From: an uncultured Chloroflexia bacterium
GTDB lineage: Bacteria; Chloroflexota; Limnocylindria; Limnocylindrales; CSP1-4
NCBI GenBank assembly: GCA_963814315.1
Contig: CAWFCG010000001.1
Location: 586,903 to 650,902 of the forward strand
DNA: 64,000 bases
Direction: 5' to 3'
How positions within the stretch are numbered: the stretch's first letter is position 1; the number at the start of each line of letters is the position of its first letter. Of this stretch, positions 1-16,958 are shown piece after piece. The notes under the pieces were generated by a model. That model did no database searches. It saw nothing but the letters and a program-made list of their open reading frames with translations, and was not told the DNA's origin. The position numbers and the translations under genes are program-made.

Positions 1-1053
1 AGCACCATCCAGTTGCCCCGGGTCAGGGCCATCGAGCCGACCGTCTTGTACGTGCCGACCGGGATATCCGTCGGGCCGTTCGACCATCCCGAGATGATCC
101 TGGGGGAGCCACTGCCGACCGTCCACGTGGGACCACCGTCGGTGTTGTGGTTGGTGAGTCGTCCCGCCTTGATGGCGCTGATGACGACATCCCTGACCTT
201 GAAGCCGTAGGGCGCCTTGCAGCTGAGGACGGCCTGGCCCGGTGAGTCGAAGACATGGACGACCTGGAGGCCAAGCGGGATGGAGTCACCCGGATATCCT
301 GGAGCCGACATGCCGAAGTCGACGACATCGAAGTCGCCACCAGCGTCGAGAAGACATGCCGCGTCATCGGTAGTGTTGCCATTCGATGCGACGGCCTTGG
401 CCACGAACCACCACGCCCCACGACCCACACCGAGCTTGCCGACGGTTCGGTAGGTGCTGTCACCGAGGACGGGCGTCGCGCCCTTGTACTTGGCCGAGAG
501 GACGACAGGCATGCCGGACCCGGTCGTCGTTGGTGGTGACGACGCCACGCGAGTCGACAGCTTGCCGGTCTTCATGGCCGTCATCCGAATGGAGCGGATG
601 ACGACGTTGCCACCCTCCTCACCGACGCAGCGCAGGTTGGCCTTGGCGGGGTTCTTGACCCGGCTGGCGAGGGTGAGCAGCACCGGGATATACGAGCCGT
701 CGCGCTGCAGCGGGGTGGGCGCGGCAGAGATGTGGTCGCTGCGCTTGCCCAGGGTCAGGCGGCACTGCACTCCCAGGTGTCCCGCAGGCGACCCACCGAT
801 GCCCACCAGCTGTGCCTTGGCCATGATGAGCCAGCCCCCATTGGGCAGCGCCATGGACGCTACGGTCTTGAGCTTGGCCGGGATCTTCACCGGCCCGGCC
901 TTGCCTCCATAGAAGACCCTGGGCCCATTCGCCGCCGATACCGGTGCAGCCAGTGCCACCGACGAGACAAGCAGCAGGGACGAAGCCAGAAGCGCCGACC
1001 AGGAGCAGTCGTAGGGTGCCCGACGACCCTGTCGGTGTTTCGGAGATGCTCAT
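1..1053 (-). CDS. secreted protein with three ~100-aa internal repeats (copy 1); 3' end runs off the window start; apparent 19-nt indel or frameshift inside the signal-peptide region relative to paralog copy 2
   Basis: Minus-strand reading frame gives ...ALLASSLLLVSSVALAAPVSA|ANGPRVFYGGKAGPVKIPAKLKTVASMALPNGGWLIMAKA... with no stop codons to position 1. ATG (MSISETPTG...) lies at 1051-1053, preceded by GGAGGT. The ATG frame and the downstream mature-protein frame differ by +1. Confidence 0.5.
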
Positions 1054-1130
1054 CAAGCCAACCTCCAACACTGCCACGAGACCGTGGAGGCGTGCACGAT
1101 AGCGGCAACCTCGATCGGACACAAGGCCCA
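1054..1130 (-). promoter_or_regulatory. conserved 5' leader of the secreted-repeat gene (duplicated at 17762-17838). It contains the SD GGAGG and an upstream CCUCCA that could pair with it, plus a small CCACGG-UCUC-CGUGG hairpin
   Basis: About 75-90 nt of near-identity between the two loci upstream of and into the start codon. Complementary CCTCCA / TGGAGG segments flank an internal hairpin. Confidence 0.35.
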
Positions 1131-1447
1131 TACCAAGCTGCGCGAACATCAGCCCCGCGTGGTCTTCGGTCACTACCACGTCGAGGTCTTGGCAGACCCC
1201 ATCATCGCCCTCGATGACGTGGAGATCCCGGGCGGGCAGGAGGTTCGCTTGACGGTCGCATCAACGAAACCCTCGTGGTCCACCGGGGTATCGGTGGCCG
1301 GGGACCCGGTGGCCGCGACCCGACGTACCCAGTTCCGGCGGTCAGGTGGCCGACCCACGGCGACGGAGGTATACCCGGGGGTATGCCCGGCGATATCCCC
1401 GCGCACGAGGGCCGGGTCCGCAGTGGGACAGGCGCCCGGTCGACAGG

Positions 1448-3346
1448 TCACCGCTCGAGCGCCTCGAGCAGCATCGGCAGCGCGTGGTGGAGGCCCTGCT
1501 CCCAATAGGGCCAGCTATGCGTCCCCGCCCCCGACTCGATCGTCGCGTCGATGCCCAGCGCCGCGAGCCTTGCCGCGAGGGCCTCGTTCTGCGGGGCCAC
1601 CCAGGCTTCGAGGTCGTCGACCGTCGCCCCCTGGGCATCGAGCGGGCCGGGCTGGCCGTCGCCCCAGGAGAGGTAGGCGGACTTGCCGGCTAGGGCCTCG
1701 GCCATCGCCAGCGGGTCGTGGGCAGCCCAGAGATCGGACTGCTCGAGCTGGTCGCCCCAAAGCCTGTAGTCCGCCTGGAAACCTCCGCCGGCCGGATCGA
1801 CGACGCCGCTGAACGACGCGACGGCCTCGAACAGCTCGGGATGGGCGGTGGCGTAGTGCATGGTCCCGTAGCCGCCCATCGACAGTCCGGCGATGACCCG
1901 CTCATCGCCGGCGCGCCAGTCACGTTCGATGATGTCGCGCAGCTCCGTCAGGTGGAAGGTCTCCCAGGCCGGCACGCCACCCTCACCCCCGTTCCACCAG
2001 TCCGAGTACCAGCCCTCCTCGCCGGCGTCGGGCATGACCACGAGCAGGTCGAGGTCCGCCGTCAGCTCGGCCACGTCGGTCTCGCGTGTCCAGCTCGTGT
2101 AGTCGTCCCAGGCGCCGTGGAGCAGGTAGAGCACCGGGTACGTCGCCTCGGGATCCCCGTCGAAGCCGTCGGGGAGCAGCAGCCGCGCCTTGACCTCACC
2201 GACCGAGGGGGACTCGATGGTCAGGTCGCGGGTGCGATCGTCGAGCTCGGCGACCTCAGCCACGCGCAGCTCGGTGAAGACCGTGGCACCGGCGGCCTCG
2301 GCCACTGGGATGTCGGCGACGGGCTCTGGCCGGGTGGGCGTGATGCGGTACAGGCCGCCGTTGTCGCCGGCATGGCCGCCCACCGCCCAGATCGTGCCGT
2401 CGGGCGCGACCGCGACCGCGCTGATGGGCGTGCCCGCGAGGTAGGTGACCTCCCGCACGGCGACCGGGTCCCAGCACGACACGCCATCGCCGTCCGTGCC
2501 GCAGCTGGGGCTGTCGGGGGAGTGCTGGAAGATGCCGGGCTCGCCGAGCGCCCAGGTGAGCGCACCACTCTCGGGATTGGCGTCGTTGTCCTCGCGGCTG
2601 TAGGTGCTCGAGAGCCAGACGGTGCCGTCGGGCAGGACGAAGATGCTGTCCATGTCGTAGCGGTAGGTCGGGTGCGTCTCGTCGAGGTCGTGCCAGGCGC
2701 CGTCGCTGACGACGCGCTCGACACCCGGCTCGATCTGCTCGGTAACGAGGCCGGCGAGACCGTCGTCCGCGTCCTGTGCTGAGGCGCTGTCGGGCGGCAA
2801 CGGACCGGGGAAGATGGCGCCCGCGACAGCGCTCCTGGGCCAGCCGCTGCTGGTGACGAACAGGATGGCGGAGAGGCCCTCGTAGGCGCCGTCACCGGTC
2901 AGCTGGTACTGGATGAGCGGGGTCTCCGACACCGCCGCCGAGTCATAGGTCGAGGTCCAGGTCCCCGCCCACGTTCCCTCATCGTTCGTGATGGTCAGCT
3001 CACCCCACGAGACTTCGACACGCTCGTCGGTGTCGGACTGGGGGAACTCGTCCACGCTCCCCGTCTGCTCCCATACGCCGCTGATGCGTGGGTCGTCCAT
3101 CTCGCTCGTGCCCGACCCGGTCATGCCGCGAAGCGTGAGCCGATTGCCTTCGTCATCGAACGTCTCGACCTCGTCGCCGCAGCAGTCGACCCCATAGAAG
3201 AAGCCGTGGACGTAGGCGGCCGGACCCGTCTCCTCGGCGCCCTGCGCCCCGACACCTATGGCCGAGCCTGTGGCCAACAGGCCGATGGCGAGCACGCTGC
3301 TCAGTCTTGACCTGGTACCCATGACGGGAACCTCCCTCTCCCCCAC
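1448..3346 (-). CDS. secreted putative esterase (esterase D / PF00756-like C-terminal domain with GLSMGG nucleophile elbow) and an N-terminal ~350-aa repeat (propeller-like) domain
   Basis: 632-aa ORF. Signal peptide RLSSVLAIGLLATGSAIGVGAQG. C-terminal LYLLHGAWDDYTSW...GLSMGGYGTMHYA...HSWPYW is typical of the putative esterase family. N-terminal half carries PDGTVWLSS / PDGTIWAVGG repeats. Confidence 0.7.
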   Translation of the reverse strand: MGEREVPVMGTRSRLSSVLAIGLLATGSAIGVGAQGAEETGPAAYVHGFFYGVDCCGDEVETFDDEGNRLTLRGMTGSGTSEMDDPRISGVWEQTGSVDEFPQSDTDERVEVSWGELTITNDEGTWAGTWTSTYDSAAVSETPLIQYQLTGDGAYEGLSAILFVTSSGWPRSAVAGAIFPGPLPPDSASAQDADDGLAGLVTEQIEPGVERVVSDGAWHDLDETHPTYRYDMDSIFVLPDGTVWLSSTYSREDNDANPESGALTWALGEPGIFQHSPDSPSCGTDGDGVSCWDPVAVREVTYLAGTPISAVAVAPDGTIWAVGGHAGDNGGLYRITPTRPEPVADIPVAEAAGATVFTELRVAEVAELDDRTRDLTIESPSVGEVKARLLLPDGFDGDPEATYPVLYLLHGAWDDYTSWTRETDVAELTADLDLLVVMPDAGEEGWYSDWWNGGEGGVPAWETFHLTELRDIIERDWRAGDERVIAGLSMGGYGTMHYATAHPELFEAVASFSGVVDPAGGGFQADYRLWGDQLEQSDLWAAHDPLAMAEALAGKSAYLSWGDGQPGPLDAQGATVDDLEAWVAPQNEALAARLAALGIDATIESGAGTHSWPYWEQGLHHALPMLLEALER

Positions 3347-3437
3347 TTGTGGACGCTCCTGGCCTTGCCCGGGGCGCCCTTGACGTGACCGGGTCCTCTT
3401 GACCCACGAGCTATGCGATCAGCGGCTGACCGTGGCG

Positions 3438-5096
3438 CTACTCGGTGGTTGCGCCCGAGGCGGGCAGATCGTCGAAGGTGAGGATCCAGGCTTCCCGGCG
3501 TCCCGCGCAGTCTTCGTGGAGGGTGGTGACCAGGGTGTTCGAGCTGATGAGGCCTTCCCCAGACCCACAGTCGCCGAAGCGGATGCCCATGTCGGAGAGA
3601 TCGATGGACGCTCGTTCTCCCTGGTCCGGGATGAATGAGATCCGAGGCTCGCCCCGACTTCCGGGCCCCACGATCCACCCGCTCGCGATCCGGAAACCAT
3701 CACCGCCTGGAGGAGCGGGTGCTGGCTCCCAGCGGCCGTTCGACTCCCGCCACTCTCCGGTGGCGGTGGACAGGACCACCGAACCGCTGGACACCGGACC
3801 GAGCCATGTCCAGACACCGTCGACCCCGGTCGGCTCGTCCGCGTCGTCTCCGATGATGTCGGTCTCGCTCCACTCGCGACCGTCCCGCGAGCGATGCACG
3901 TGGACGAGGCCATCGGCTCCGATCGTGTAGGACACGAAGCCATCCTGGTCGGCGGTGAAGGCCAGCGATGACTCGTTCGCGACCTCCTGCGGGGGATCCA
4001 CTCCGACGAGTGCATCACCGCTCAGGATCGCCAGCCCTGCGACCGGGTCGACCGCGTGGCCCCCCATGGGGGTCCCCTCCTCGACGGCGAGTCGCTCGAC
4101 GTACTCGAGGCTCACGTTCTCGAGCACCATCAGCTCCGTGCCGTCAGCGTCGTCGGTCACCCGAAGACCGAGCTCCGTATCCTCCATCCGAAGCGTGGCG
4201 TAGGTGTCGGCGCTCAGAGCACCGCGGGGGAAGCCCTCGATCTCCTTGATATCGAAGACGCCCGGCGCAGCCTCGACGAGGGCCGGGTACTCGAGGTCGT
4301 CGATTCCCGGCAGCTCGCGGAACACCACCGAGTAGTCGGCGGTCCACGTGAGCGGGACGATGGTGACCCCGTCGTACGTCACGGGCTGGCCGGGCTGGAC
4401 GACCCATGCATAGCCGTCCGGTCCGGGCGGGTCCAGCTCCTCGAGACTGACCTGCTCCCAGGTCTGCGTGTCTCGCGAGCGCCACAGCGAGGCATCGCCG
4501 TCACGACGTCCTCCTGCGCTCAGCCAGTAGGTGTCACCGGCCCGCCACAACTGGATACTCCCGGCTCCGATGCCGAGAGGCTCCTCCAGGGTCCAGCGGA
4601 GAAGGTCGGGGGACCGCCACAGGCCCTCCGAAGTGCCCGTCTGAGAGTCGAAGTCCGGGACGATGTATCCGCCTTGCGTGCTGAGCAGCTCGAAGAGCTG
4701 GCTCGGGAGCGACGACTCGTCGCCCGTCAGATGGACCCACCGTGCCGGCCCGAAGGGCGACTCAAGCGTTCCCGATCGGACGTCCACGGGGATGTCATTC
4801 GGCAGCTGGATGGGCGGGAACGTCGTCGCCTCCGGGGTCGCGGTGGGACCGACCGCCGGGGGTGGGTCATCGCTCGGATGTGTCAGGACACCGCTGAGCA
4901 GGACGCCGGCGAACAGCGCCACGATGACACCCGCAACGACGAGCTTGGTCGCGCTGAACATGGTCTGGAGCCTCCACTTGGGGGACTGGATGGCGGCGGC
5001 ATGGGCGATGGCCAAGGCATCGAACGATGGCTCCGGACCGCCCATGCGGTCGAGCACGACACCGATCTGGCGTTCAAGGCTGGTGTCGTCACGCAT
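3438..5096 (-). CDS. membrane-spanning anti-sigma factor A (cytoplasmic N-terminus, one TM helix, ~480-aa extracytoplasmic repeat domain)
   Basis: Start ATG at 5094-5096 overlaps the stop of the upstream ECF sigma gene (ATGCGTGA). TM segment LVVAGVIVALFAGVLLSGVL. Paralogous to the 10834-12186 product (shared QSPKWR(L/F)QTM(F/I)SATK motif). DG..W repeats in the ectodomain. Confidence 0.65.
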   Translation of the reverse strand: MRDDTSLERQIGVVLDRMGGPEPSFDALAIAHAAAIQSPKWRLQTMFSATKLVVAGVIVALFAGVLLSGVLTHPSDDPPPAVGPTATPEATTFPPIQLPNDIPVDVRSGTLESPFGPARWVHLTGDESSLPSQLFELLSTQGGYIVPDFDSQTGTSEGLWRSPDLLRWTLEEPLGIGAGSIQLWRAGDTYWLSAGGRRDGDASLWRSRDTQTWEQVSLEELDPPGPDGYAWVVQPGQPVTYDGVTIVPLTWTADYSVVFRELPGIDDLEYPALVEAAPGVFDIKEIEGFPRGALSADTYATLRMEDTELGLRVTDDADGTELMVLENVSLEYVERLAVEEGTPMGGHAVDPVAGLAILSGDALVGVDPPQEVANESSLAFTADQDGFVSYTIGADGLVHVHRSRDGREWSETDIIGDDADEPTGVDGVWTWLGPVSSGSVVLSTATGEWRESNGRWEPAPAPPGGDGFRIASGWIVGPGSRGEPRISFIPDQGERASIDLSDMGIRFGDCGSGEGLISSNTLVTTLHEDCAGRREAWILTFDDLPASGATTE

Positions 5097-5637
5097 GACC
5101 AAGGTCCTCCCGTAGCCGCCCAAGCAATCGTTCGAGGCGAGTCCGGGTGCCCGATGGGCTGAGTCCGATCGCCGTGGCGAGCTCGGAGGAATCGAAGCCC
5201 GCGACATAGCGGAGCGCGAGCAGGGCGCGATCGTCAGGGTCGAGCCGCTCGAGAGCCGCTTGCAGATCGAGGTAGGCGATGCCGGTCGCTGGATCGATGC
5301 CACCTGGCTGGTCCGGAGGCTCACCGATGAACTCGACCCGAACCCTTCGGCCGCGCTTCTTCAGGAGCTTCCGCGCCTCGTTCAGCGCGACCGTGATGAG
5401 CCAGGGACGGAGCCGATCCGGCTGCCGGACGGTGCCGAGCTTACGCCAGGCGATCGACCAGGCGGTCTGAGCCGCTTCCTCCGCGATGGCCCTATCGCGG
5501 GCGACCATGTGGCAGATGCGTACCAGCTCGGCGTGGTGCGCGGCCACGATGCGGGCGAACGCCACATCGTCACCAGCCGCAGCAGCTGCGATCACCTTCG
5601 TGACCTCGCCCGCACCGATCTCGGTCATGGCTTCCAT
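5089..5637 (-). CDS. ECF (sigma-70 family, group IV) RNA polymerase sigma factor A
   Basis: 182 aa. Sigma-70 region 2 (AAQTAWSIAWRKL...) and region 4 (DPDDRALLALRYVAGFDSSELATAIGLSPSGTRTRLERL) signatures. 8-nt overlap with the downstream anti-sigma gene. Confidence 0.85.
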   Translation of the reverse strand: MEAMTEIGAGEVTKVIAAAAAGDDVAFARIVAAHHAELVRICHMVARDRAIAEEAAQTAWSIAWRKLGTVRQPDRLRPWLITVALNEARKLLKKRGRRVRVEFIGEPPDQPGGIDPATGIAYLDLQAALERLDPDDRALLALRYVAGFDSSELATAIGLSPSGTRTRLERLLGRLREDLGHA

Positions 5638-5700
5638 ATCCCGTTAGATACGCTGCTGGCCCGCAAGTGTCTCAGCCGACGGCAAATTCGGGGCAAGCCG
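5638..5700 (-). promoter_or_regulatory. putative autoregulated promoter of sigma A: CTGAGACA-N18-ATCT immediately upstream of the ATG
   Basis: Minus-strand sequence gccgtcggCTGAGACActtgcgggccagcagCGTATCTaacgggatATG. The same CTGAGACA-N18-ATCT arrangement occurs upstream of paralogous sigma C (12728-12790). Confidence 0.4.
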
Positions 5701-5879
5701 TGCCCGCGACTCTCCGACACGGAATTGGGCTCGCCTCTTTCGCGGGCTGATGCTGGGCTTGTGTCCGCTCATCGCTTCCGACCTACCCCCGCTTGGTTCG
5801 GACACCTGCAGTTTGGCTCCTTGCCTCAACCGGGTCGCGTCGACCCGCGAAGGGTTCCTATCCGGCGTGCGCTCTGGCC

Positions 5880-7132
5880 CTACTCCGCAGTCGCCCCCGC
5901 GGCCGCTGGGTCGATGACGAGGAAGCCGTTCCTGACCCAGAGCCAGATCGTGCCGTCCGGTGCCACCTGGAGCGGGCGCTCCAACAGATCGAGGTCCTCC
6001 GTGTCGGTAAACACGTCCGTCCACGTGGTCCCGTCGTAGACGCCGAGCACGAGTCCTCGATCGGAGGCCCCCGCAGCCCACAGCCGCCCGTCGGGCGCCA
6101 CGATCATGTTGCCCGTGTAGCCTCCAGACGCGGCGATATGCGGGATATCCGCATCGGCGTCCGATACCTTCCAGGCCATCCCGTCGAACCGTGCGAGCGC
6201 GGGTGGGTCAGTGCTGATGAACGCCCACAGCTCGCCCTCGGGGCCGCTGGCCAGGGGCGAGTAGCAGTTGACCTGGGGAGGCGGTGGCGTGACCGGCTGG
6301 AACTTCGACCCATCGAACCGAAGCAGTTGCCCAGCGCGGTTCCCAGTGTGGTCGCGATCGAGACCCACAAACTGCCGTCGGGCGTCGACGCAAACCCGCC
6401 CGGGAACAAGTACACGTAGTCGGCAATCTGCCCTTGGTCGTCCACGATCGGGTACGCGGTCCAGGTGTCACCGTCGAGACGTGCGAGCGTGGTGGTGCTG
6501 CGCGCCCAGACGGTCCCGTCCGGCAATACCTCGAGCGCCTTGGCCGGCGCGTCACCAGGAAACGCCGGGACCGTCGTCCAGACATCGTCCCGGAACGAGG
6601 CCACAGTGCCCTTGGCGAGCGACCACAGGGCGCCATCGGGCGAGCCGGTGAGATCGGCGAAGTCGAGTCCGACGGACGGGCCCGGGAGAGAACCGACGTC
6701 CCCGACCCGCTTCAGTCGACCCGTGGTCAGTAACCAGATACCACCGTCGGCATCGAACGCCAGATCGCCATGCCGGCTGCTGCCGACACCGGCATGGCTG
6801 GCGAACAACACGCCGGGAGCGAGCTCCTCGGTGTCCAGACCAGGCGGGGGTGTCCAGCTCGTCGGCGAGGGCGAAGGCGTGGTCGCGGGTACAGGCGTGG
6901 GATCGCTGACAGCGGAGAACAGGAGTGTACCGGCGCCAAGTGAGACGACGGCGATGGTGGTGATGAGGGTGGTGGTGGCAGTCAGCATCGGGCGAGTCCT
7001 CCGAGTCGTCGTGGTCGTGGTCGTGGCGGGTGGGACGCCGACGCCGGGTCGGTCAGTGAGCCGGGGTCGGTACACCGGGTCGGTGGCTGGTCGAGCGCGC
7101 AGGCTGCGCTGGAGGGTCATCTCATCCATCAC
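5880..7132 (-). pseudogene. anti-sigma factor B, apparently frameshifted near 6335-6350 (ORFs 6104-7132 and 5880-6368 are two halves of one protein)
   Basis: Start ATG overlaps the sigma B stop (ATGA at 7129-7132). TM segment TATTTLITTIAVVSLGAGTLLF. The 342-aa ORF decays into Arg/Ser-rich nonsense after ...DGSLWVSIATTLGT. The -1 frame then continues with propeller-like repeats (RFDGSKFQPV..., DGRLWAAG, DGTIWLWV) and a paralog-like C-terminus. Confidence 0.55.
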
Positions 7133-7674
7133 TCTTCCCCTCCGATCACGTCCAACCCGGTGCGCAGCGTCCGTAGCGCGGTCGTGGCGTGGCTCCGGGC
7201 CGCGCCGGCTGTGATTTCCATCACCTGGCCGATCTCCTCATAGGAAAGGTCCGCCTGGTAGCGCAGGTAGATGACCTGGCGCTGTCGGTCAGGCAGCTGG
7301 TCGACCTGACTCCAGACGGCGACCCGGTCGGTCGCGTCCGCTTCCATCACCGGCGGTGTCGCCCGGTCGCCCAAGCGGGCAACGAGGGTGGCGATGCGCC
7401 GATGGAGCCGGTGCTCATCCATCGCGAGGTGGGCCAGGGTGCGGTACGTCCAGGCTTCCGGGGAGCGGATGTCCGCCCCGCCGTCCAGTTCGCGCCAGAG
7501 GCGCAGCAGGGCCTCCTGCACGAGATCACCAGCACGGCCGGCGTCGACCCCAAGGCGGAGGGCGTAGCCGAAGAGCCGCTGGCCTGACGCCTGTTCGAGG
7601 GCAACGACCGCCAGCCAGGCGTCGTCTCGGGCCGCCTCGAGCACGATGGGGGCCCCCGCTCGACTGATGCTCAT
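7129..7674 (-). CDS. ECF sigma factor B
   Basis: Region 2 (DLVQEALLRLWREL) and region 4 (LPDRQRQVIYLRYQADLSYEEIGQVMEITAGAARSHATTALRTLR) motifs. Start chosen at MSISRAGAP (7672-7674). The ORF could begin at 7770. Confidence 0.8.
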   Translation of the reverse strand: MSISRAGAPIVLEAARDDAWLAVVALEQASGQRLFGYALRLGVDAGRAGDLVQEALLRLWRELDGGADIRSPEAWTYRTLAHLAMDEHRLHRRIATLVARLGDRATPPVMEADATDRVAVWSQVDQLPDRQRQVIYLRYQADLSYEEIGQVMEITAGAARSHATTALRTLRTGLDVIGGEE

Positions 7675-7995: not shown

Positions 7996-8811
7996 CTACT
8001 TGGTCGAGGCGTTCTCCGGGGGCGGTGGCAACTCGCCATCGATGATGAAGCCGTGCAGCGTGTAGGGCTCGACTTCGAGGAGCACCGCGACGAGTCCTTC
8101 GTAGTCACCCTCCCCGTCGAGGACCCACGTCCCGCCGCTGCTATCGCCGTACCGAGGAGACTCGATGAACGGGCGAGGCCGCATGCGCCATCCGCCGCCG
8201 TCGTTCTCGATGCTGATGGCGAGTGTGCCGACCGTCACGCCGCTATCGAGGTACTCGTCCTGGGACGCCGACCAGGTGACCGTGCCATTGAGCCGCTCGT
8301 CGCTGAAGGACCAATGAGGATTGCAATACCCGCCTCGGCTCTGTGTGACGTCACCGACGGCCTCGGTCGTCGGTTCGCCGGGGCACGGTCCCGCTGACGA
8401 GGTCGCGGTGACCTCCACCGGCGGTGCTGGCGCTGGATCCATCGCGGCCCCTGGCACGCTGCCCTGCTGACCGAAGGGCTGGGCGATGAGGAAGGCACCC
8501 CCGATGGCGAAGACGATGGAACCTGCGGTGATGGCCTTGATCGGACTGAACATGGACTGAGTCCTCCCTGTAACGGTGGGGGTGTGGCCGTTCGTGGCCG
8601 GGATAGGACTGGGCTGGGCGTTCGAGGTCTGGTCCGTGGTCGGAGGCTGATGGTCATGCCGGAAGGTGGGGAGTGGCCACCAGCGACCTCGCTGGCGGGT
8701 CTGCTCCACTCGGGCAGACACGAGACCCGTGCTGCGATGAACGTCCTCCGGCCCGACATCCGTTCGCTTCAGCCACGCCCGCACCACTGGAGACAACTGC
8801 TTGTTGGTCAC
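7996..8811 (-). CDS. membrane anti-sigma factor D (cytoplasmic ~85 aa, one TM helix, extracytoplasmic domain)
   Basis: ATGA overlap with the upstream ECF sigma gene at 8808-8811. TM segment ITAGSIVFAIGGAFLIAQPF. Confidence 0.6.
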   Translation of the reverse strand: MTNKQLSPVVRAWLKRTDVGPEDVHRSTGLVSARVEQTRQRGRWWPLPTFRHDHQPPTTDQTSNAQPSPIPATNGHTPTVTGRTQSMFSPIKAITAGSIVFAIGGAFLIAQPFGQQGSVPGAAMDPAPAPPVEVTATSSAGPCPGEPTTEAVGDVTQSRGGYCNPHWSFSDERLNGTVTWSASQDEYLDSGVTVGTLAISIENDGGGWRMRPRPFIESPRYGDSSGGTWVLDGEGDYEGLVAVLLEVEPYTLHGFIIDGELPPPPENASTK

Positions 8812-9371
8812 GGCACGACCTCGCGTTGGGTGTGCGCTGGCGAGTCGGGCTCGAAGTCGACGCCCATCGCGATACGCATGGCATCCATCGCTCGACTCAT
8901 TCGTGAGTACACGGTGCCCTTGCGGACTCCGAGCGTCTCAGCGACCTGCTCCAACGTCATGTCGAGCAGGTAGTGCAGGACGATCACGGCTCGGTGGTCC
9001 ACCGAGAGTTGCCTGAAACCGTGTTCCAACTCGTCGCGGTCGAGCACTGCGCCGTAGGCATCTGCGGCTCTGGGTTCACGGGTCCCTGGCAACGCGGTGT
9101 CCGGCAGCCACTTCGGCGTCCGCTTCGCCTCCGCGTAGCAGGCGTGGACAAGCAGCCGACACGACCAGACCTCGTACTTGGCAGGGTCTCTCAATCGCTG
9201 GATGTTGCGCCAGACGTCGAGGTACGCCTGCTGCGTGGCGTCTTCGGCATGAGACCGATCCCGGAGGATGCCTTGGGCCACTCGGAATAATCGGGGATAG
9301 TCAGCAAGCGCCAGCGAGTCGAACGCTCGCTTGTCGCCTCGTTGTACCCGAACGATGAGGTCTCGGTCCAT
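8808..9371 (-). CDS. ECF sigma factor D
   Basis: 187 aa. Region 2 (HAEDATQQAYLDVWRNIQRL) and region 4 (LSVDHRAVIVLHYLLDMTLEQVAETLGVRKGTVYSRMSRAMDAMR) motifs. Confidence 0.85.
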   Translation of the reverse strand: MDRDLIVRVQRGDKRAFDSLALADYPRLFRVAQGILRDRSHAEDATQQAYLDVWRNIQRLRDPAKYEVWSCRLLVHACYAEAKRTPKWLPDTALPGTREPRAADAYGAVLDRDELEHGFRQLSVDHRAVIVLHYLLDMTLEQVAETLGVRKGTVYSRMSRAMDAMRIAMGVDFEPDSPAHTQREVVP

Positions 9372-9604
9372 GCCACCGCACTCTCTGACCGTCGGCCTTG
9401 GTGACCGACGGGCGGACCAACATGTGCCGGCCCGCTACACCTTAAGAGTGCTGGGCAAGCGAAAACTCATCCATGCCGAGTCAACAACGACTCCGACACC
9501 ATCGGCGCCTTGCAGCTGGGCTGCTGCGGTAACTCGTCGATACGGCGGGTGCGGGTCGCAGGGCGTGTCTGAGGAAGTGGCGCCGGAGTCCATTGGTGCG
9601 TCGG

Positions 9605-10531
9605 TCACTCCCCGGGAGTCGGAGCGCGGCGCAGCTCGTAGAGCCAGCGGATATCGCACCCCAGGGGCCGAGCGGATGCGTCCCCGAAGTTGGTGACACC
9701 GGTGAAGACCGCCTCGACCACAAAGCGGTCCCCATCCGTCGGGAACGTCACGGACGCGACCTCTGCGGCTTCGGTCGAGAGGTCCGGGTTGGCGATGGCG
9801 AAGCCGCTCATGCCGATGCGGCCGCCGGGGACATCGCGCAGACCCGCGGTGAGTCGGCCGCCGCCACTTATCGAGTCAGGCTTCCCTTTCCTCGTTCCGG
9901 AAACGACCAACGCGTGGTGGAGTTCGACCGTCGCTCCCGGTGTTGCCGACCAGGGAGGCGGCTCGAAGGCCCAGGTGAAGCTCAACTCCGATACATCCTG
10001 CTCAAGGTAGCTCGAGCGGTAGCCGTAGTCGATCGACTCGTCAGAGACGGCACATTCGACGAACGAGCCGGACCGATCGGGGTTGCCGGGATGCAACTCC
10101 CGGCGCTGGGGACGCGCTTCGGGGTTGTGGATGGGACGGGTCCTGACCCAGAGCCCCGTCTCGGCCGCGTCCGCCGCCGGAAGCACCACCACCAGGGCAT
10201 CATCCGAGCCGCCGTAGGTGGTATTCCGCAGCACGACTTCGTAGGCGCCGGGCTCCGTGAAGGTGTAGTCGTATCGCTCGTCAGCACAGGGCATGGACGT
10301 GACCGATCGACCGTCGATGGCGATCTCGCAATCGGGCTCGGAGGCGGCGGTCTTGCGCCAGACGAAGCCCACGTCGAGCGGCGCGCTGCCCTCATTGGGT
10401 ACGGCCTCGAACTCGGTGATCCCCTGCGAGATGTTGTTGGCCACGAAGACGAGCCCCGAGCATCCGGACAGCACCACGACAGCCGCGGACGCCAGCCCGA
10501 TCGACATCACCTTCCCACGTCCGGTTCCCAT
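9605..10531 (-). CDS. secreted lipoprotein of unknown function
   Basis: AGGAGG sits 6 nt upstream of the ATG at 10529-10531. Lipobox VVLSGC in MGTGRGKVMSIGLASAAVVVLSGCSG. Ig/PKD-like sequence features. The ORF track's longer N-terminal extension is Arg-rich and unlikely to be translated. Confidence 0.5.
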   Translation of the reverse strand: MGTGRGKVMSIGLASAAVVVLSGCSGLVFVANNISQGITEFEAVPNEGSAPLDVGFVWRKTAASEPDCEIAIDGRSVTSMPCADERYDYTFTEPGAYEVVLRNTTYGGSDDALVVVLPAADAAETGLWVRTRPIHNPEARPQRRELHPGNPDRSGSFVECAVSDESIDYGYRSSYLEQDVSELSFTWAFEPPPWSATPGATVELHHALVVSGTRKGKPDSISGGGRLTAGLRDVPGGRIGMSGFAIANPDLSTEAAEVASVTFPTDGDRFVVEAVFTGVTNFGDASARPLGCDIRWLYELRRAPTPGE

Positions 10532-10833
10532 CGAGCACCTCCTGCTATCTCGGCCGTCCGACGTTGCCTTGACTCGGGTGGTCAGGTCTGCGTGTCGAGG
10601 ACCTCCGACATGGGTCGAGCGATGACGACGCTGGGGGTGAACCTTGCCACGGGGCTGGCTCCTTCTCCATTCGCCGGGCGACCACGTCGGGCTGGATGCC
10701 CGGCGCCGGTTGGGCCCCCGCGTGCGCACCACCCTCGCCTGCGAGCGGAGGATAGCCGCTGACCCATCGGACAGGAAGTCGACCTTTGCGGCACTCTTCT
10801 GGCGCGGGCCGGCCGTGATCCGTGGCCGTGACC

Positions 10834-12186
10834 TTACTCGGCCGCCGCCACGGCCTCGGGGATGATCACGTAGAGGGCGTTCTCGGCGACGCTCCAGGCA
10901 TGACCATCGGGCCCGAACACCCGGTCGGTGCCGCCCGGGAGGTCCTGCGCTCTGAGCCCGTCCGCATCGAGGACCAGCTGACCGTCGAGGAACCAGACCG
11001 TTCCGTCGTCGAGGACGTGGGGGCCGTCGCTGTAACGGACTGTCGCGTTCAGAGCGTCCAACATTCGTGTCACGCTAAGCTCGACCTCGAACGGGCGATA
11101 GGTCGTCCACGCATCACCATCCCAGGTCCTGAGCACGAGGGTGACGAATGCCATGCCCTCTCGCGGGGACTGCCGGTTGTACGACTCGACGACCCAGACC
11201 GCGCCATCGGGGCCGACCGACATGTCGTCGGGGCCCAACCGGACCGAGCCATCGACGAGCGACACCACTGCCTGATCGGAGGGGATCCGTTCCCAGGTGC
11301 TGCCGTCGTAGCGCACGAGGCCCGCAAATCTGGACCCGGGCGAGCGGACGGTGGCCCACAGCGTCCCGTCATCGGCGATGGTGACCGACCCGATGTGTCT
11401 ATCCGACGTGAGTCCAAGCTCCTCGGGAGCGACGTCGACCCAGCCACCGTCATGGTCGTCCCGGCCGAGAGAAGCCTCGAGGAGGGTCCAGCAGTCGCCG
11501 TCGGCCGCGATCCCGCCCTGCCCACCCTCGCTGACCTCGTCGCAGGGCGAGGGCTCGTGATCGACCCAGGCCTCGCCGTCGAAGAGTCGCGCACGTGCCC
11601 CATCAGAGACGACCGGAGCGCCGTCCACGGTGAAGAGCTCCCACAGGTCCTTTCGATCGAGCTCACGCGACACCCCGGGCTCCCCGAGGCGGACGATGTC
11701 CCAGCTCTTCGATGAACCGAGCTCGACCCACACGTCGCCCTCGGGCGTCACGGTCACGTCGTAGACCTGGTCGGAGAGATCGCGGTGTCCATCGCTCAGC
11801 ACCCGGTACACCCCCGGCTCGACCTCCTCGGTGACGAGGTCCACGCCTGGCAGAAGGTCAGCGGCGACCGATATCTCGGAATCGGCTGAGGCCTCGGCAG
11901 TCGGTGCCGACTCCGGGGACGACGAAGCGGACGCGATCGCAGCCGGAGCCTCTTGCCTCGGTTCGGTCGTGAGGATGCCCGTGAGCAGGAAGCCGCCGAA
12001 CAGCGCCACGATGGCACTGGCGACGACGAACTTGGTCGCGCTGATCATGGTCTGGAACCTCCACTTGGGGGACTGGGTGGCGGTGATGGCGTTGAAGATC
12101 GCGGCATCATCGACAGGCTCCGACGGCCCCATCCCACGGATGACCTCGCCCGCGACTCGTCGCTCGAAGGTTTGCGTGTCATCCAT
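10834..12186 (-). CDS. membrane anti-sigma factor C (paralog of A) with extracytoplasmic propeller-like repeat domain
   Basis: ATG at 12184-12186 overlaps the sigma C stop. TM segment FVVASAIVALFGGFLLTGIL. DGTLWATV / DGAVWVVE / DGTVWFLD repeats. Confidence 0.65.
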   Translation of the reverse strand: MDDTQTFERRVAGEVIRGMGPSEPVDDAAIFNAITATQSPKWRFQTMISATKFVVASAIVALFGGFLLTGILTTEPRQEAPAAIASASSSPESAPTAEASADSEISVAADLLPGVDLVTEEVEPGVYRVLSDGHRDLSDQVYDVTVTPEGDVWVELGSSKSWDIVRLGEPGVSRELDRKDLWELFTVDGAPVVSDGARARLFDGEAWVDHEPSPCDEVSEGGQGGIAADGDCWTLLEASLGRDDHDGGWVDVAPEELGLTSDRHIGSVTIADDGTLWATVRSPGSRFAGLVRYDGSTWERIPSDQAVVSLVDGSVRLGPDDMSVGPDGAVWVVESYNRQSPREGMAFVTLVLRTWDGDAWTTYRPFEVELSVTRMLDALNATVRYSDGPHVLDDGTVWFLDGQLVLDADGLRAQDLPGGTDRVFGPDGHAWSVAENALYVIIPEAVAAAE

Positions 12187-12727
12187 CGCCCAGATCCTCT
12201 CGGAGTCGCTTGAGCAACCGCTCGATGCGGCTGCGGGTGCCCGACGGGCTGATACCAGTCGCGTCAGCGAGTTCGGTGGAGTTGAAGCCAGCGCCGAAGC
12301 GCATGGCGAGCAGCGCCCGGTCGTCAGGATCGAGACGGGCCAGTGCGCGGCGAAGGTCGATGGTGTCGACATCGCCGCTCGGGTCCATACCACCCGGGTC
12401 ACTCAAGCCATCGGACGGGACCTCGATCTCGGCTCGCCTGAGGCGCTTGCGCAGGAGCTGCTTGGCCTCATTGACCGCGACCGCCATGAGCCAGGATCGC
12501 AGCCTCGCGGGTTCGCGGACGCTGCCGATCTTCTTCCAGGCGATGACCCAGGCGGCCTGCGTGGCCTCGTCCGCGACGGCGCGATCACCGACCACGTACA
12601 GGCAGACCCGGCGCATGTCGTCGTGGTGCGCCGCGATGATGCGGCGGAAAGCGTACTCGTCGCCGGCAGCCGCAGACGCGATCAGGTCACTGGCATCGTG
12701 TTTGGCCAACCGCGTCACTGCCTCCAT
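12179..12727 (-). CDS. ECF sigma factor C (close paralog of sigma A, same length)
   Basis: 182 aa, collinear with sigma A (e.g. RALARLDPDDRALLAMRFGAGFNSTELADATGISPSGTRSRIERLLKRL). Confidence 0.85.
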   Translation of the reverse strand: MEAVTRLAKHDASDLIASAAAGDEYAFRRIIAAHHDDMRRVCLYVVGDRAVADEATQAAWVIAWKKIGSVREPARLRSWLMAVAVNEAKQLLRKRLRRAEIEVPSDGLSDPGGMDPSGDVDTIDLRRALARLDPDDRALLAMRFGAGFNSTELADATGISPSGTRSRIERLLKRLREDLGDG

Positions 12728-12790
12728 ACCTCAAAGATGCGTGGCGTCAGACCTACTGTCTCAGGTCGATGCAATCTCTCGCGCGACTCG
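12728..12790 (-). promoter_or_regulatory. putative promoter of sigma C sharing the CTGAGACA-N18-ATCT motif with sigma A
   Basis: Minus-strand sequence cgacCTGAGACAgtaggtctgacgccacGCATCTTtgaggtATG. Confidence 0.4.
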
Positions 12791-13081
12791 CGACACTCAA
12801 CGGCCCTGCGTCGCTTCGGAAGCGGACCGTGCACGGCGAACCGGCTACGACTGCCTGTAGGTGCTCGATGCACATCGTGCCCGGGCCACTCGGGGCGACC
12901 TCGTGACCGCCGCCGCCGACCGCGCGGCAACCGGGACGATCGTGGAACGCACGAGCCGCTTGCTCCACACGGAGACACAGCGTCCTCATGAGACAAATAT
13001 GACCTTGACATTTGAGAAAGCACGGTCCATCGTCCCCGCTCTCTACCGCCATGTCAGGCGGGGCAAGACGCGGAGCGTTGC

Positions 13082-15968
13082 TTGGACGCTGGGGGTCAGG
13101 TCGGGTCAAGGGCCGGACACACGCGAGGGGTCGCGCGTCACCCCGTTCTTTTCGTCCTCTGCGTGACGTTCGCGCTCATCACCGGTCTCGCCGGCTGGGG
13201 TGATCCCGCGGTACGTGCCGCCGAAACGCTGACCCCACCACCGGCCCCGTTGTCAGTCGCGATCGACGTGGTGGGGTCGCCCTCAACGGTGATGGTCGGC
13301 CAGCCCGTGCTGATCACGATGCATGCCAGAGGCGCCAAGGACATCGTCGCGCTCGAGCTGTGGGAGAGCGACCGATCGGTGGCCGTGCTGCCGGCGGATG
13401 GCCCGCGCACCACGATGTCCTCGGGTTGGGAGTGGACGCCGGGCGCCCCTGGCGATGTTGCACTCTTCGCTCGCGCGACCGATGTCGCCGGGAGCGTCGC
13501 CAACTCGAACGCCGTACACATCCGCATCCTGGGGGATAGGCGGCGGACGTCGCGTGGCGCTCCCACACCAGGCGATCCGAGTCCACCCAGTGCCTCGGCC
13601 GACCCTGCGTCAGACCTGGCGATCGAAGTGGTCGGCTGCCACGCATCGCTGCGACTGCAGCCGGACGCGGGTGCAGCGGGGATCTCGATCCACCATCTCG
13701 CGCCGACCGGCTCCGCCTTCCGACGGATCGTCACCGTGGCCGCTCCGGAAGCGAGCTTCACGTACGACCTCCCACTCAGCCCCGGGCTGCATCTCCTCAG
13801 CCGATCTGTCTTCGACGACGCGACCGAGCGATACGGACGGGTCGTGGCGGTCAACGCGCCGCAGCGCTGTGGCCATGCCGGATGGCGTGGGAAGGCACGC
13901 CTCATGTCGGGGCGGTTGCGGGTGCCCGCCAACGTCGACCGCGGGTATCTCTACATGAGGATCGATGGCGGTCCCGCCGTCCGTGTCCCTGGCGACCCCC
14001 GCACCTTCGTGGTGGCAGTCGACGGTATCCTGGACTTCAGCCGACACCTGCCACCGCTGACGGGGCAGGAGCTGTCGTTCGAGGCTTGGGCCTGGGCCAA
14101 CGGGCGGCTGGTTGATCTTGGCGCCGGGCGGTTCGACATCAAATCGGCACGGAGCGATTTCGCGCGGAGCCCGGGATCCATGGGTCTCAGCCTGGCTGGC
14201 GACCTGGACACCGCCGGGTTCATCGGGTACGGGGCTAGCACCTCGCTCGACATGGTGGTGATCAAGGGCGGTGGTGAGTATCGTCGAGCAACTCGCACGC
14301 GACGGTGGCCTGACATTTCCCACCGAGCCTGCCGGGCAGCCGATCTTTCGAACCTTGCGCTGGACGACCAGCCTGCCGGGCGTGACCTCCGTCGTCTGGC
14401 AAATCCTGCCCTATGCGCCAGGTATCTCACCCGACCTCACGCCGCCCTTCGCCATCGACCTGTGGTCCGAGCAGGTTCCCGAGGGAACCACGTCGGGCAG
14501 CTTCGGTGTGGACTTCAGCCTCTATCTGGAGAAGCCGGCCACCGTCGCGATCAGAGCGCTGGAGCTCGGGCTCGGGGTGAGTCCGGAGACAGCCATCCTC
14601 GGCGACCCCATCCTGCCGGGAGCATCACCGACGATCCCGCAGCCGGAGACCGTCTCGCAGGCTCAGCCGGCGATCGGGGGAGAGCTGATGGCTCCGGCCG
14701 CGTCGTGGCCGGTCGCCTTCCTCGGTGACTTCTACGTTCGGGTCGTGCCCATGGCCGGTGCCGTTCCCATGCCCGCATCGAACTACGTCCGATTGAGCAT
14801 CGGGGAGGCCGGTACGGACGGGGTCATCAAGCCACCGTCTATTCCGACCTGTGAGGAGTGCGGGTCCAGCCCGGGCGCCCTGGGAGTCTCCTGGAGCTTC
14901 ACCTTGCCCACGCCGGCCAACCCGAAGTACACCGCGTGCGCCGTCGTGACCGGCTTCGCCCAGGACTACCTGAAGCCACCGGCCTGGTGGCCATACAGCT
15001 ACAAGGTGGGCAAGGTCCTCTGTCCCGACCCGCCTGACGATGGCTGGAGCGTCTGGGATGCCTTCGACGCGGTCGTCTCGTTCGTAGCGGACGTATGGGA
15101 CTTCGTCTCTTCCTCGTACGCCTGGATCAAGCAACAGGTGGTGTCTGCCGTGCTCATCGCAGTGCCCTGCCAGGCCATCGCGGACAAGTCGGTCTGCGAA
15201 AGCGTGGCCAACATGGCGCTCGATGCCGTCGCCGTGGGTTTCGGCATCCCGCCGTCCATCCCGGACTTCGATGCGACGATGGCAGCACTGAAGGGTGATG
15301 TGGTGGAATTCGTCGTGGAGAATGCGGCCAAGCAATTCCCGGCCGTGGCGCTGGCCTGCGACATCGCGTCAGTTGGCACGTCGGCGGGCGCCGGTATCAA
15401 GAACTGCGAGGACCTGGCCGCCATCGCCGTCGATGAGGTCCTGAAGCAGATGGCCACCGCACGCAGCACAGCTGCCGGCAAAGCAACCGGGAAGGCATGG
15501 CCGGGCGTTCTCTTCGAGCCGGATCCGCGCGGTCAGTGGCAACCGCCGAGCGTGACCTTCACGGCAACGCGCACCAGCGACCCCGTGCAGCCCGCGACGT
15601 GCTGGGTAGGAGCTGCGATGTCGTCCACGCTGCACGACTGGGAGTGGCCTGAGCTCGTCGCTGGCCACACCGAGACAGGCTCTGGTGACATCAAGGGCTC
15701 ACCCCTGTTGCCCGAGGCCGTGGCCCTGCCGCCACTGAAGCCCGGCGAGTCCGTGACCCGCACGCTGTGGCTCGATGACTACGCGACCTGGTTCGAGAGC
15801 GGGGATTCCTACGAGTACTGGTACTACGCCAAAGCACTGGAGCACCCCAATCGGGCGTGGGCGCTACTGCAACAGGGCGCCCAACTGACCTTCACCGTAT
15901 CGAGCAACTGCGGTCCTACCAGCTCCATCGGGCCGGTCACCCTGCAAAAGTCAGCGACGAAGCCATGA
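13082..15968 (+). CDS. large secreted protein (~960 aa) of unknown function with N-terminal Ig-like region. Apparent +1 frameshift near 14262-14275 splits it into ORFs 13082-14272 and 14271-15968
   Basis: N-terminal hydrophobic signal segment (VLFVLCVTFALITGLAGWG). Frame 2 is protein-like to ...TSLDMVVIKGGGEY and then Arg-rich. Frame 0 opens at 14262 and is protein-like through to 15968 (many Cys pairs, WDFVSSSYAWIKQ...). Confidence 0.5.
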
Positions 15969-16840
15969 GCGTGCTCGTGCCGTTGCTCACCTGGCTGACG
16001 GCGGTCCTCACCGCGATCACCCTGATCGTGTCGTCGTTGAGCGCGCCCTCGTTCGACGAGCATTCCGGGGCTCGCGCCTGGTTCGACGAGCCCCTGCCGG
16101 GCACGATCGTACTGAGACAGCCTCTGGCGGTAGTTGGTCATGCCACAGCCGCCGAGGGGGTCGCCCAGGTCGATCTCATCGTCGACGGTGTGGTCGTGGC
16201 CAGCGAGACGTTCGCACCTGGACGCGTAGCTGGCGACCGGCCAGCAATCCTCAGGACTGCGCATATGACCTGGAAAGCGCCTTCGCCAGGACGTCACCTG
16301 CTGATGCTCCAGCCGACCGATCCGAGTGGCGCGCAGGGGATACCAGCCAAGATCGTCATCGAAGTCAGCGCGGAACGGCCGACGCCCAAGCCGACGCCCA
16401 GGCCCACCCCGCGACCGACACCACGAGCGACACCCAAGCCTGAGCCCAAACCTACACCGAAGCGGCCGCCACAGGACACAGCAAAGCCCAAGCCCACGCC
16501 AAGGCCTACACCGAAGCCCTGCGTGCCATCGCCGCCTGGCCTGGTCGCCCCACCTGACTTCTTCCTGATCGCCGAGCCGGCAGCCAATCCCCCGACCTTC
16601 CGCTGGAACGCCGCTCGCGGCGCAGGCTGCAAGTCGACCGGCTACGTGGTCGAGGTGACCAATAACGATGGGGGCATCGTCCTGCAGCAGCGCCTTCGCG
16701 CCGACGCACGGTCATGGACGCCGAGTGACACGTTTGCGAACTGTCAAGCATATCGCTGGCGCGTCCGGTCCATCGGGCCGGGAGGAGCCGGTCGCTTCAG
16801 CTCCCGCCGGTCCTTCGCCATCTCGTATCGCTGCGACTAG
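15965..16840 (+). CDS. membrane-anchored protein with Pro/Thr-rich (PTPKP)n linker and C-terminal Fn3-like domain. Start overlaps the upstream stop (ATGA)
   Basis: MSVLVPLLTWLTAVLTAITLIVSSL signal/anchor. Linker RPTPKPTPRPTPRPTPRATPKPEPKPTPKRPPQDTAKPKPTPRPTPKP. C-terminal YVVEVTNNDGG...YRWRVRSIG. Confidence 0.55.
   Translation: MSVLVPLLTWLTAVLTAITLIVSSLSAPSFDEHSGARAWFDEPLPGTIVLRQPLAVVGHATAAEGVAQVDLIVDGVVVASETFAPGRVAGDRPAILRTAHMTWKAPSPGRHLLMLQPTDPSGAQGIPAKIVIEVSAERPTPKPTPRPTPRPTPRATPKPEPKPTPKRPPQDTAKPKPTPRPTPKPCVPSPPGLVAPPDFFLIAEPAANPPTFRWNAARGAGCKSTGYVVEVTNNDGGIVLQQRLRADARSWTPSDTFANCQAYRWRVRSIGPGGAGRFSSRRSFAISYRCD
16375..16505 (+). repeat. tandem degenerate 15-nt repeats encoding the (P-T-P-K/R-P) linker
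   Basis: Repeated ccgacgcccaagccg / acgcccaggcccacc / ccgcgaccgacacca units seen directly in the sequence. Confidence 0.6.
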
Positions 16841-16958
16841 CCGGCATCACTCAGCACAGGTCGAGGTCCAGCGCCCCCGAGAACTTGGCGTCACTGAGGG
16901 TGTTGGAACAGGCGTTCGCGCCGTTCACCTCGAAGGGGCGAACGATCCCAACTAGTGT

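Follow-up and report, generated by a model that had tools for sequence, protein, structure and literature searches.

The first 13 kb of a 64,000-nucleotide stretch of DNA from an uncultured soil Chloroflexia bacterium (contig CAWFCG010000001.1, positions 586,903 to 650,902; the whole stretch, with a G+C content of ~67%, is the window in what follows) carry four minus-strand genes for sigma factors of the extracytoplasmic function (ECF) type, each overlapping the gene of a single-pass membrane protein with its N-terminus inside the cell (N-in). This gene layout is real, and we consider it rather probable that the region is a row of four signalling modules, each pairing an ECF sigma factor with a membrane partner, in an uncultured and presumably single-membrane Chloroflexia host. 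New here are a minimal module of cytoplasmic tail plus membrane helix, conservation of the helix-coding block at the nucleotide level, and a conserved internal ribosome-binding site with its start codon. Sigma factors and partners were named A, B, C and D by ascending window coordinate; all lie on the minus strand within 1–13 kb:

5089–5637, minus strand: ECF sigma A, 182 aa, AD type; Sigma70_r2 and r4; TIGR02937 63.8 bits
3438–5096, minus strand: partner A, 552 aa; D-like tail and membrane-helix module, then a different ~480-aa beta-propeller; internal GGAGG at 4971–4975, ATG at 4959–4961
7129–7674, minus strand: ECF sigma B, 181 aa, a third type, 20% identical to sigma A; Sigma70_r2 and r4; TIGR02937 75 bits
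5880–7132, minus strand: partner B, ~421 aa after repair of a 1-nt frameshift; ~48-aa tail, one helix, Reg_prop-type propeller; internal GGAGG at 6998–7002, ATG at 6986–6988
8808–9371, minus strand: ECF sigma C, 187 aa, C type (MDxDLVVRxQxGD...); Sigma70_r2 and r4; TIGR02937 63 bits
7996–8811, minus strand: partner C, 271 aa; ~86-aa tail, one helix, ~160-aa ectodomain; internal GGAGG at 8563–8567, ATG at 8551–8553
12179–12727, minus strand: ECF sigma D, 182 aa, AD type; Sigma70_r2 and r4; TIGR02937 74.5 bits
10834–12186, minus strand: partner D, 450 aa; ~45–46-aa two-helix tail, one membrane helix, ~seven-bladed Reg_prop-like propeller

All four sigma factors, 181–187 aa long, carry PF04542 and PF08281/PF04545 as their only domains, the composition that defines ECF (group 4) sigma factors, and all exceed the NCBIfam model of the sigma70-ECF superfamily, TIGR02937 (63–75 bits against a cut-off of 42.9). 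None passed an NCBIfam ECF subfamily model, the best being TIGR02983 (SigE-fam_strep) at 79–104 bits against a cut-off of 141.55. The nearest solved relatives of sigma D are likewise ECF sigma factors, including SigL and CnrH, the latter third-best (E = 2.7e-7). Sigmas A and D are 57% identical and equally long, and B and C are 20–23% identical to A; the close paralogs of identical length (182 aa) are therefore the first and fourth sigma factors, and not A and C as the first-pass annotation of this DNA had it. Each sigma gene runs into its partner gene, by 8 nt in pairs A and D (partner ATGs at 5096 and 12186) and by 4 nt in pairs B and C (partner GTGs at 7132 and 8811). That annotation had described four ECF sigma genes, each overlapped by 4–8 nt by a gene for a protein with a single transmembrane helix, and had read them as an array in which sigma genes are coupled in translation to single-pass membrane partners; both descriptions are borne out by the Sigma70_r2/r4 domain hits and by the start/stop overlaps.

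Every partner has one hydrophobic helix preceded by a basic stretch, with the N-terminus in the cytoplasm and the C-terminal part outside (type II, N-in). The extracytoplasmic parts measure ~480 aa in A, ~345 aa in repaired B, ~160 aa in C and ~375 aa in D, in agreement with the large ectodomains of up to ~480 aa first reported. Partners A and D are alike over their first 73 residues (55% identity, E = 7e-18) and unrelated beyond them. As deposited, partner B cannot be read through: its frame switches near 6330–6360 and continues in another frame to 5880, with a GGG run at 6342–6344 as the candidate indel site, so that the partner B gene first given (6104–7132) is a broken one. In an independent assembly covering this locus (run ERR15459710), a 369-aa open reading frame (ORF) runs uninterrupted over the break and the distance from the sigma B start to the sigma A start is greater by 1 nt, which makes an assembly error the probable cause of the break.

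Three of the four partners (A, B and D) have beta-propeller ectodomains, and that of C is a small non-propeller beta domain. The proposal that these ectodomains are propellers thus stood for B and D, which are Reg_prop-like, and for A, which is a different propeller, and fell for C. The AlphaFold 2 (AF2) model of partner D, made with 61 homologs, has a mean predicted local distance difference test score (pLDDT) of 81.7, exceeding 90 over residues 110–450, and shows ~29 strands in roughly seven four-stranded blades. Its top solved matches in Foldseek are BT4663 (E = 1.5e-8) and BT4673 (E = 2.8e-6), followed by many other propellers, at low TM-scores of 0.35–0.38. The model of partner A gave a generic propeller only; its ectodomain has three RSxDxxxW (Asp-box-like) motifs. 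Repaired B passes the Pfam cut-off for Reg_prop (PF07494; 24.2 against 20.4 bits, where the broken ORF reached 17.7) and aligns to the D ectodomain (BLASTP, E = 2e-5). The Reg_prop profile search that had been suggested was accordingly positive for repaired B, with no Pfam Reg_prop hit in A, C or D.

A single DG(T/S)(V/I/L)W repeat had been thought to run through all the ectodomains, the N-terminal domain of a nearby esterase and a protein encoded at 50144–51247. Motif counts, BLASTP and Pfam reject this. A looser PDGxxW motif occurs seven times in B, six times in D, twice in the middle part of the esterase, once (weakly) in A and not at all in C, and by BLASTP the only links are between B and D and between D and the esterase; the 50144–51247 protein has no such motif, no Reg_prop hit and no BLAST similarity to the partners or the esterase. 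The start of the D propeller resembles esterase residues 162–267 (E = 3e-6), and the C ectodomain resembles esterase residues 75–182 (E = 7e-5).

The module shared by A and D is widespread. A two-sequence profile of it retrieved 485 clusters at 50% identity from 1.84 billion representatives, with the consensus MDDMNAFERQ..GP..PVDDAAIF.AI.ATQSPKWRFQSMFSATKFVVAGAIVALFGGFLLSGVLTQ, and in nearly all of the 150 matches listed out of those clusters the module begins at residue 1. What follows it varies: among 100 members, the fused domains were Reg_prop in 8, Kelch propellers in 6 and right-handed beta-helix/NosD/pectinesterase domains in 5–6, with SGL and Vgb-lyase-type propellers, YscW, META and GDSL lipase domains in others and mostly no Pfam match in the rest. 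Homologs were detected for D (230), A (31) and C (335), all from metagenomes or metagenome-assembled genomes, and none carries a functional name, those named at all being called 'hypothetical protein'; partner A is 100% identical to one metagenome-derived protein. Among the matches listed, partner C homologs are 184–457 aa long, mostly 262–313 aa, and their tail is conserved in a 27-sequence alignment. The longest, P0186 (457 aa), has Sigma70_r2/r4 fused to partner C-like sequence, either as a true fusion or as a frameshift-merged gene call. The family is lineage-specific, with nearly all clusters from Chloroflexia metagenome genomes.

A scan of one genome per species with a profile made from 6 sequences gave 21 loci, as many as six of them in one genome; 20 come from genomes titled 'uncultured Chloroflexia bacterium' and 1 from a 'Chloroflexota bacterium'. 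Each of the 21 has a sigma gene immediately before the module, its end coinciding with the module's beginning, and L004 and L020 contain arrays in which about 15 kb hold five or six sigma genes. The synteny comparison proposed for the cassette thus found it conserved in relatives. The C-type sigma recurs in many of these loci, and locus L023 holds an ortholog of partner A at 80% identity. At 14809–17380 of L023, the partner coupled to an AD-type sigma is 676 aa long and has a GDSL lipase/acylhydrolase as its ectodomain, and an enzyme domain can therefore fill the 'sensor' position. A third type of tail (MNDRELD..., 52 aa) was seen at 2306–4077 of L024, paired with a 179-aa sigma; its membrane helix and GGAGG-N9-ATG are those of the other partners, and the gene caller took the internal ATG as the start.

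The best-conserved part of the partners is the membrane helix. In 61 D-type homologs, with a mean column identity of 24%, L62, G64 and G65 never vary and another 12 helix positions reach at least 90% conservation, and the C-type partners share the helix motif RxQSMFSP.KAITAGA.VFAIGG.FL. The conservation extends to the DNA:

11983–12075, minus strand: conserved block coding for the membrane helix of partner D; includes GGAGG at 12058–12062 and an in-frame ATG at 12046–12048

Over ~100 nt this block has a pairwise mean nucleotide identity of 85–90% across 16 units, against a maximum of 78% in the sigma genes, and identity falls to 34–46% from ~110 nt past the block start. Where residues with four- or sixfold-degenerate codons are identical, different codons are used in 24% of cases in the helix block, 46% in the tail and 61% in the sigma genes. 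The helix-coding block is thus the most conserved DNA of each unit. Directly before the helix, all four partners, including B with its otherwise unrelated sequence, have GGAGG, nine nucleotides and an in-frame ATG (ATGs at 4961, 6988, 8553 and 12048), and the same signal is used at accepted starts, GGAGG standing at 7–9 nt for the esterase, a lipoprotein-like gene and partner A. Among 41 non-redundant units from the window and the loci, 33 have a perfect GGAGG-N9-ATG, 3 match four of the five bases, 4 have GGGGG and 1 has CTG for ATG. Such an arrangement is uncommon inside genes: in 28 window ORFs, 7 of 251 internal in-frame ATGs have a GGAGG 5–10 nt upstream, and three of those seven are the partner sites. 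The residue before the arginine varies (W, G or R), and the codons are always xGG-AGG, in a window where AGG makes up 5.7% of arginine codons and GGG 17% of glycine codons.

We propose that the cytoplasmic tail of each partner (about 45 aa in A, B and D; about 86 aa in C) would bind and sequester its own sigma factor in the class II (CnrY) manner, with the outer C-terminal part acting as a ligand-binding module. A signal at the ectodomain would then release the sigma, most likely through regulated proteolysis ending in the conserved Gly-Gly-containing membrane helix (the window ORFs that were scanned include no M50 protease), and the freed sigma would transcribe its own operon, in the case of A and D from a motif ending 7–9 nt before the sigma ATG. 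Anti-sigma factors governed by regulated intramembrane proteolysis (RseA, RsiW, RsiV, RsgI) are cut first outside the membrane and then, by a site-2 protease, inside the helix; the strong conservation of the helix is an indirect hint that the partners may be processed likewise. Judging from position, topology and co-variation with the sigma factors, the partners are probably anti-sigma factors. Putative ECF anti-sigma factors are typically encoded by the +1 gene, have membrane helices and usually lack a Pfam anti-sigma match (PMC7826278). Over 11 pairs, the more alike two sigma factors are, the more alike are the cytoplasmic segments of their partners (r = 0.65, Mantel p = 2e-4); the membrane helix shows no such correlation (r = 0.22). 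The tail is itself protein-coding, since it stays open in frame, is conserved across loci and uses different codons at identical four- and sixfold-degenerate residues in nearly half of the cases, as given above; in L024, too, an ATGA overlap is followed by an open frame up to the membrane helix.

The tails do not belong to class I of the anti-sigma domains. Domains of this class (ASDI) are N-terminal, four-helical and on average ~100 aa long (PMC7406223), and they are excluded here because the tails are ~45 aa with two predicted helices; families of this class (RseA, RsiW, ChrR, RskA, zf-HC2) gave no Pfam or NCBIfam hit, in a cytoplasmic segment of about 45 aa for which two helices are predicted in D. 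In the class II layout, exemplified by CnrY, helix 1 contacts sigma4 and helix 2 contacts sigma2 (PMC7406223). More broadly, the tails match no described anti-sigma domain in Pfam (to E = 10), NCBIfam or a PDB profile search, and membership of a known anti-sigma family was rejected accordingly. At the level of the family, the first-pass annotation was thus right that this is not a named, described system. The general kind, an ECF sigma with a membrane protein at +1 as putative anti-sigma, is well known (PMC7826278): the kind of module is ordinary, and this family is undescribed.

Several observations weigh against an anti-sigma role. One is the lack of homology just described; another is that shared descent of adjacent genes can also yield such co-variation; and the helices of the D tail (residues 3–18 and 27–35) are predicted at only moderate confidence (pLDDT 71–75), and the same elements recur in the model of A, where the tail scores below 50. 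The partners might instead be surface or secreted proteins that truly start at the ATG before the helix, the sigma merely driving their expression and the upstream stretch being a translated leader or a separate short regulatory peptide. Besides the unmatched tails, the strong conserved GGAGG-N9-ATG before the helix would fit such an arrangement, as would the habit of gene callers and deposited annotation of starting at that ATG (P0148 at 185 aa, P0114, P0002–4) and the existence of D-type propeller versions with only a signal peptide (P0005–7, P0022). However, the upstream tail is conserved as protein in an open frame that begins exactly at the sigma stop codon with a GGAGG/GAGG of its own, its divergence tracks that of the sigma, a sigma gene adjoins it in all 21 loci, and class II anti-sigma factors have the layout of a two-helix tail and then a membrane helix (PMC7406223). 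We therefore regard this alternative as improbable and continue with the partners as putative anti-sigma factors.

The simplest reading of the helix block is then a predicted internal translation start, from which the partner gene would also yield a shorter, membrane-anchored ectodomain protein without the sigma-binding tail and hence unable to bind sigma. Gene callers frequently begin at the internal ATG (P0002–P0004, P0148, P0114/L024), even where the frame is open back to the ATGA overlap with the sigma stop codon. In-frame internal starts are documented in bacteria, many having been mapped genome-wide in E. coli (bioRxiv 10.1101/520783); a full-text literature search found no report of one in an anti-sigma factor. 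A further step is conceivable, though we would put it at somewhat below an even chance: one gene would supply both a full-length anti-sigma factor and a sigma-blind copy, and their ratio, together with the near-identical shared helix, would set the sensitivity of the switch or couple the switches to one another. In a weaker variant of this two-product scheme, the conserved 100-nt block may be a junction for exchanging ectodomain cassettes.

The block could also have arisen with no internal start at all, GGAGG and ATG being a by-product of amino-acid constraint plus gene conversion between paralogs, or the whole being a recombination junction for swapping ectodomains. It is in keeping with this that the entire ~100-nt block is conserved, not merely the Shine-Dalgarno sequence and the ATG, that identity drops abruptly ~100 nt past the block start (~75 nt past the internal ATG), with unrelated ectodomains after the same module, and that membrane topology leads one to expect a basic residue ahead of such a helix. 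On the other hand, block identity is not higher within genomes (0.846) than between them (0.878), which speaks against within-genome gene conversion and leaves no sign of concerted evolution; partner B and the partner at 15140 in L022 share only GGAGG-N9-ATG with the block; and the nucleotides before the arginine stay xGG-AGG, with rare codons, while the residue changes. A stable RNA structure as the cause of the conservation was likewise rejected, since none was found in the block (z-scores -0.05, 0.43, 0.74 and -0.42); the absence of stable structure, with z from -0.4 to +0.7, is what an initiation region would be expected to show. On balance, an origin of the block without an internal start seems to us unlikely, if less so than the alternative role for the partners discussed above.

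Genes resembling natural short-only versions do occur in relatives. At 9849–11260 of L001 and 10505–11770 of L020, D-type propeller genes directly follow C-type sigma/partner pairs, with frameshifts or truncations in their tails; all that is left of an AD-type sigma in L001 is its last ~13 codons. We discarded these genes as proof of an internal start, their upstream parts looking frameshifted or truncated and possibly reflecting assembly errors; they may be decayed units, short-only genes or assembly errors. Such degenerate units also bear on whether the array in the window is itself partly decaying, partner B and a large divergent gene being pseudogenes and the row a remnant beside a transposase. 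The frameshifts near 6330–6360 and 14250–14290 and the DDE transposase fragment at 16956–17564 could be read in this way. Set against this are the ERR15459710 assembly, 1 nt longer and with an intact ORF over the B frameshift, the GGG run at 6342–6344 within the B frame-switch interval as a candidate indel site, the many such frame breaks in related genomes, and the G+C at third codon positions (GC3), which stays high across the break of the divergent gene and is high in the downstream frame of B too (5880–6467, GC3 0.77). Decay of the array is, in our estimation, the least probable of the alternatives.

Possible control sequences were found upstream of the AD-type sigma genes:

12735–12765, minus strand: AD-type promoter-like motif before sigma D (TGAGACAGTAGG-N-CGCATCT), ending 7 nt before the ATG; 31.9 bits
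5646–5676, minus strand: AD-type promoter-like motif before sigma A; 28.6 bits

The position weight matrix (PWM) behind these scores was built solely from other genomes, and the null, taken as the best score in 20 shuffled windows, did not exceed 18.6 bits. In 14 units the motif reads tGAGACA(G/C)T(A/T)GG, 11–13 nt, CGCATCT and ends 7–9 nt before the sigma ATG. The two sites before sigma A and sigma D are the only ones in the 64-kb window, and the 414 kb of related loci have the motif nowhere but before AD-type sigma genes, a distribution that fits autoregulation of these sigma factors. Since the motif ends 7–9 nt before the ATG, the AD-type sigma mRNAs may be leaderless or nearly so. The genes mostly begin ATGGAGG (11 of 14 as called, and L012 too at its motif-aligned ATG); a -10-like GCATCT 7–9 nt before the ATG together with this beginning suggests leaderless mRNAs with GGAGG inside the first codons.

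The C-type sigma genes have an upstream region of another sort. In the window (9372–9500, minus strand) and in L001, L003, L004, L007, L017 and L020, they share a GAAAnnGGAAAG element, beyond which, at ~17–19 nt, stands C(A/T)TACC-TATAGAGG and then a GC-rich hairpin (GGCCGAG-N4-6-CTCGGTCC) ~40 nt before the sigma ATG. The arrangement resembles an ECF-type promoter with a conserved hairpin after it in the 5' untranslated region (5'-UTR). With a PWM for the C-type promoter, the window's own site scored 11.2 bits, within the null range.

As to what the modules control, the adjacent secreted enzymes had been suggested, and of these only one gene has support:

1448–3322, minus strand: secreted-type multidomain esterase, 624 aa, 91–115 nt downstream of partner A; PF00756 at 1.5e-35 over residues 376–616

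The match to PF00756 confirms the earlier identification as an esterase; here and below, 'secreted' is a call made by inspection of the sequences and not by signal-peptide prediction. The order sigma, partner, esterase (there 627 aa) is kept in L023, and the esterase is likely the sole plausible linked output, which would be co-transcribed with module A. The other genes are without such support, the A/D motif standing only before the two sigma genes, and a separate AD-type promoter before the esterase, the lipoprotein or the divergent genes was sought and not found in the window or the related loci. Between genes, 5 intrinsic terminators were found against 4.0 expected.

Among described systems, CnrH/CnrY of Cupriavidus metallidurans (NepR-type) is alike in pairing an ECF sigma with a membrane protein whose short cytoplasmic N-terminus has two helices, as is predicted here for D. 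CnrY itself is nearly devoid of an ectodomain, sensing being left to a second protein, CnrX, whereas the partners described here carry their own, exchangeable sensor domain; the tails share no sequence similarity with CnrY, and binding to sigma is here predicted only. The two helices of CnrY wrap around sigma4 and sigma2 (PMC7406223).

The closest functional analogue, by analogy and not by membership, is SigI/RsgI of Clostridium thermocellum. There, a short cytoplasmic anti-sigma domain, one membrane helix inside which RseP cuts and exchangeable carbohydrate-binding or enzyme modules are combined in several paralogous sigma/anti-sigma operons per genome, whose outputs are secreted polysaccharide-degrading enzymes (PMC4711584, PMC6582324, PMC10328401, PMC12203970). 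However, SigI is not an ECF sigma factor, RsgI_N has no match here (Pfam to E = 10), the ectodomains here are mainly propellers, and no autoproteolytic juxtamembrane domain was identified. The sensor fold of B and D comes closest to the Reg_prop domains of Bacteroides hybrid two-component systems: BT4663 and BT4673 are the best solved structural matches of the D ectodomain, albeit at TM-scores against D of only 0.35–0.38, and repaired B passes the Reg_prop cut-off. Those domains sense glycans and act through a histidine kinase with an AraC-type regulator, where here the output is a sigma factor. In the ECF classification 2.0, autoregulated promoter motifs are conserved within groups (PMC7826278); a conserved membrane helix and an internal Shine-Dalgarno sequence with ATG are not among the features reported there.

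Around and between the pairs lie further genes:

3–1049, minus strand: partial gene running off the window, for a protein with a signal-peptide-like N-terminus; high-GC3 frame, no Pfam match
9605–10531, minus strand: lipoprotein-like gene, 308 aa, between pairs D and C; lipobox LSGC at residues 21–24, no Pfam or NCBIfam match
13082–16840, plus strand: divergent genes without a family match; GC3 frame switch, junction sequence; the only Pfam match is Big_7, below its cut-off
16956–17564, plus strand: DDE_3 transposase fragment adjoining the array; PF13358 at 6.6e-24

The first-pass annotation had seen internal repeats in the protein at 1–1053, where self-BLAST finds none, and a lipoprotein at 9605–10531, where the lipobox is indeed present; L023 has a 308-aa gene in the same relative place. 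The divergent protein described there as ~960 aa long is, as read, two plus-strand ORFs in different frames, 13082–14728 and 14271–15968. With their clean GC3 frame switch near 14250–14290 they do look like one gene with a change of frame, and they are probably a single gene for a ~960-aa membrane-anchored or secreted protein that a frameshift or an assembly error has interrupted. Next, at about 15959–16840 (plus strand), comes a membrane-anchored protein with a Pro/Thr linker. From 18200 to 50200 the window is ordinary chromosome, with PfkB and FGGY sugar kinases, an ABC sugar transporter and a fucose-isomerase-like gene, and with DRL oxidoreductases, a SorC-type regulator, an MFS transporter, LtrA and amino-acid enzymes; a tRNA-Lys(CTT) lies at 27442–27533, and no Rfam family matched in the window.

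Bacteria sense their surroundings in large part through pairs of ECF sigma and anti-sigma factors, and most anti-sigma factors are uncharacterised. The locus described here defines a family expanded in Chloroflexia (~485 clusters at 50% identity) that joins a very short tail and a near-invariant helix to many surface domains, among them propellers, beta-helices and lipases. If the internal start is real, an anti-sigma gene would also encode its own sigma-blind counterpart, a layer not described for ECF signalling. A module of ~75 aa that accepts any ectodomain would moreover be a compact scaffold for engineering orthogonal sigma switches, and the family may point to what uncultured soil Chloroflexia sense and degrade.

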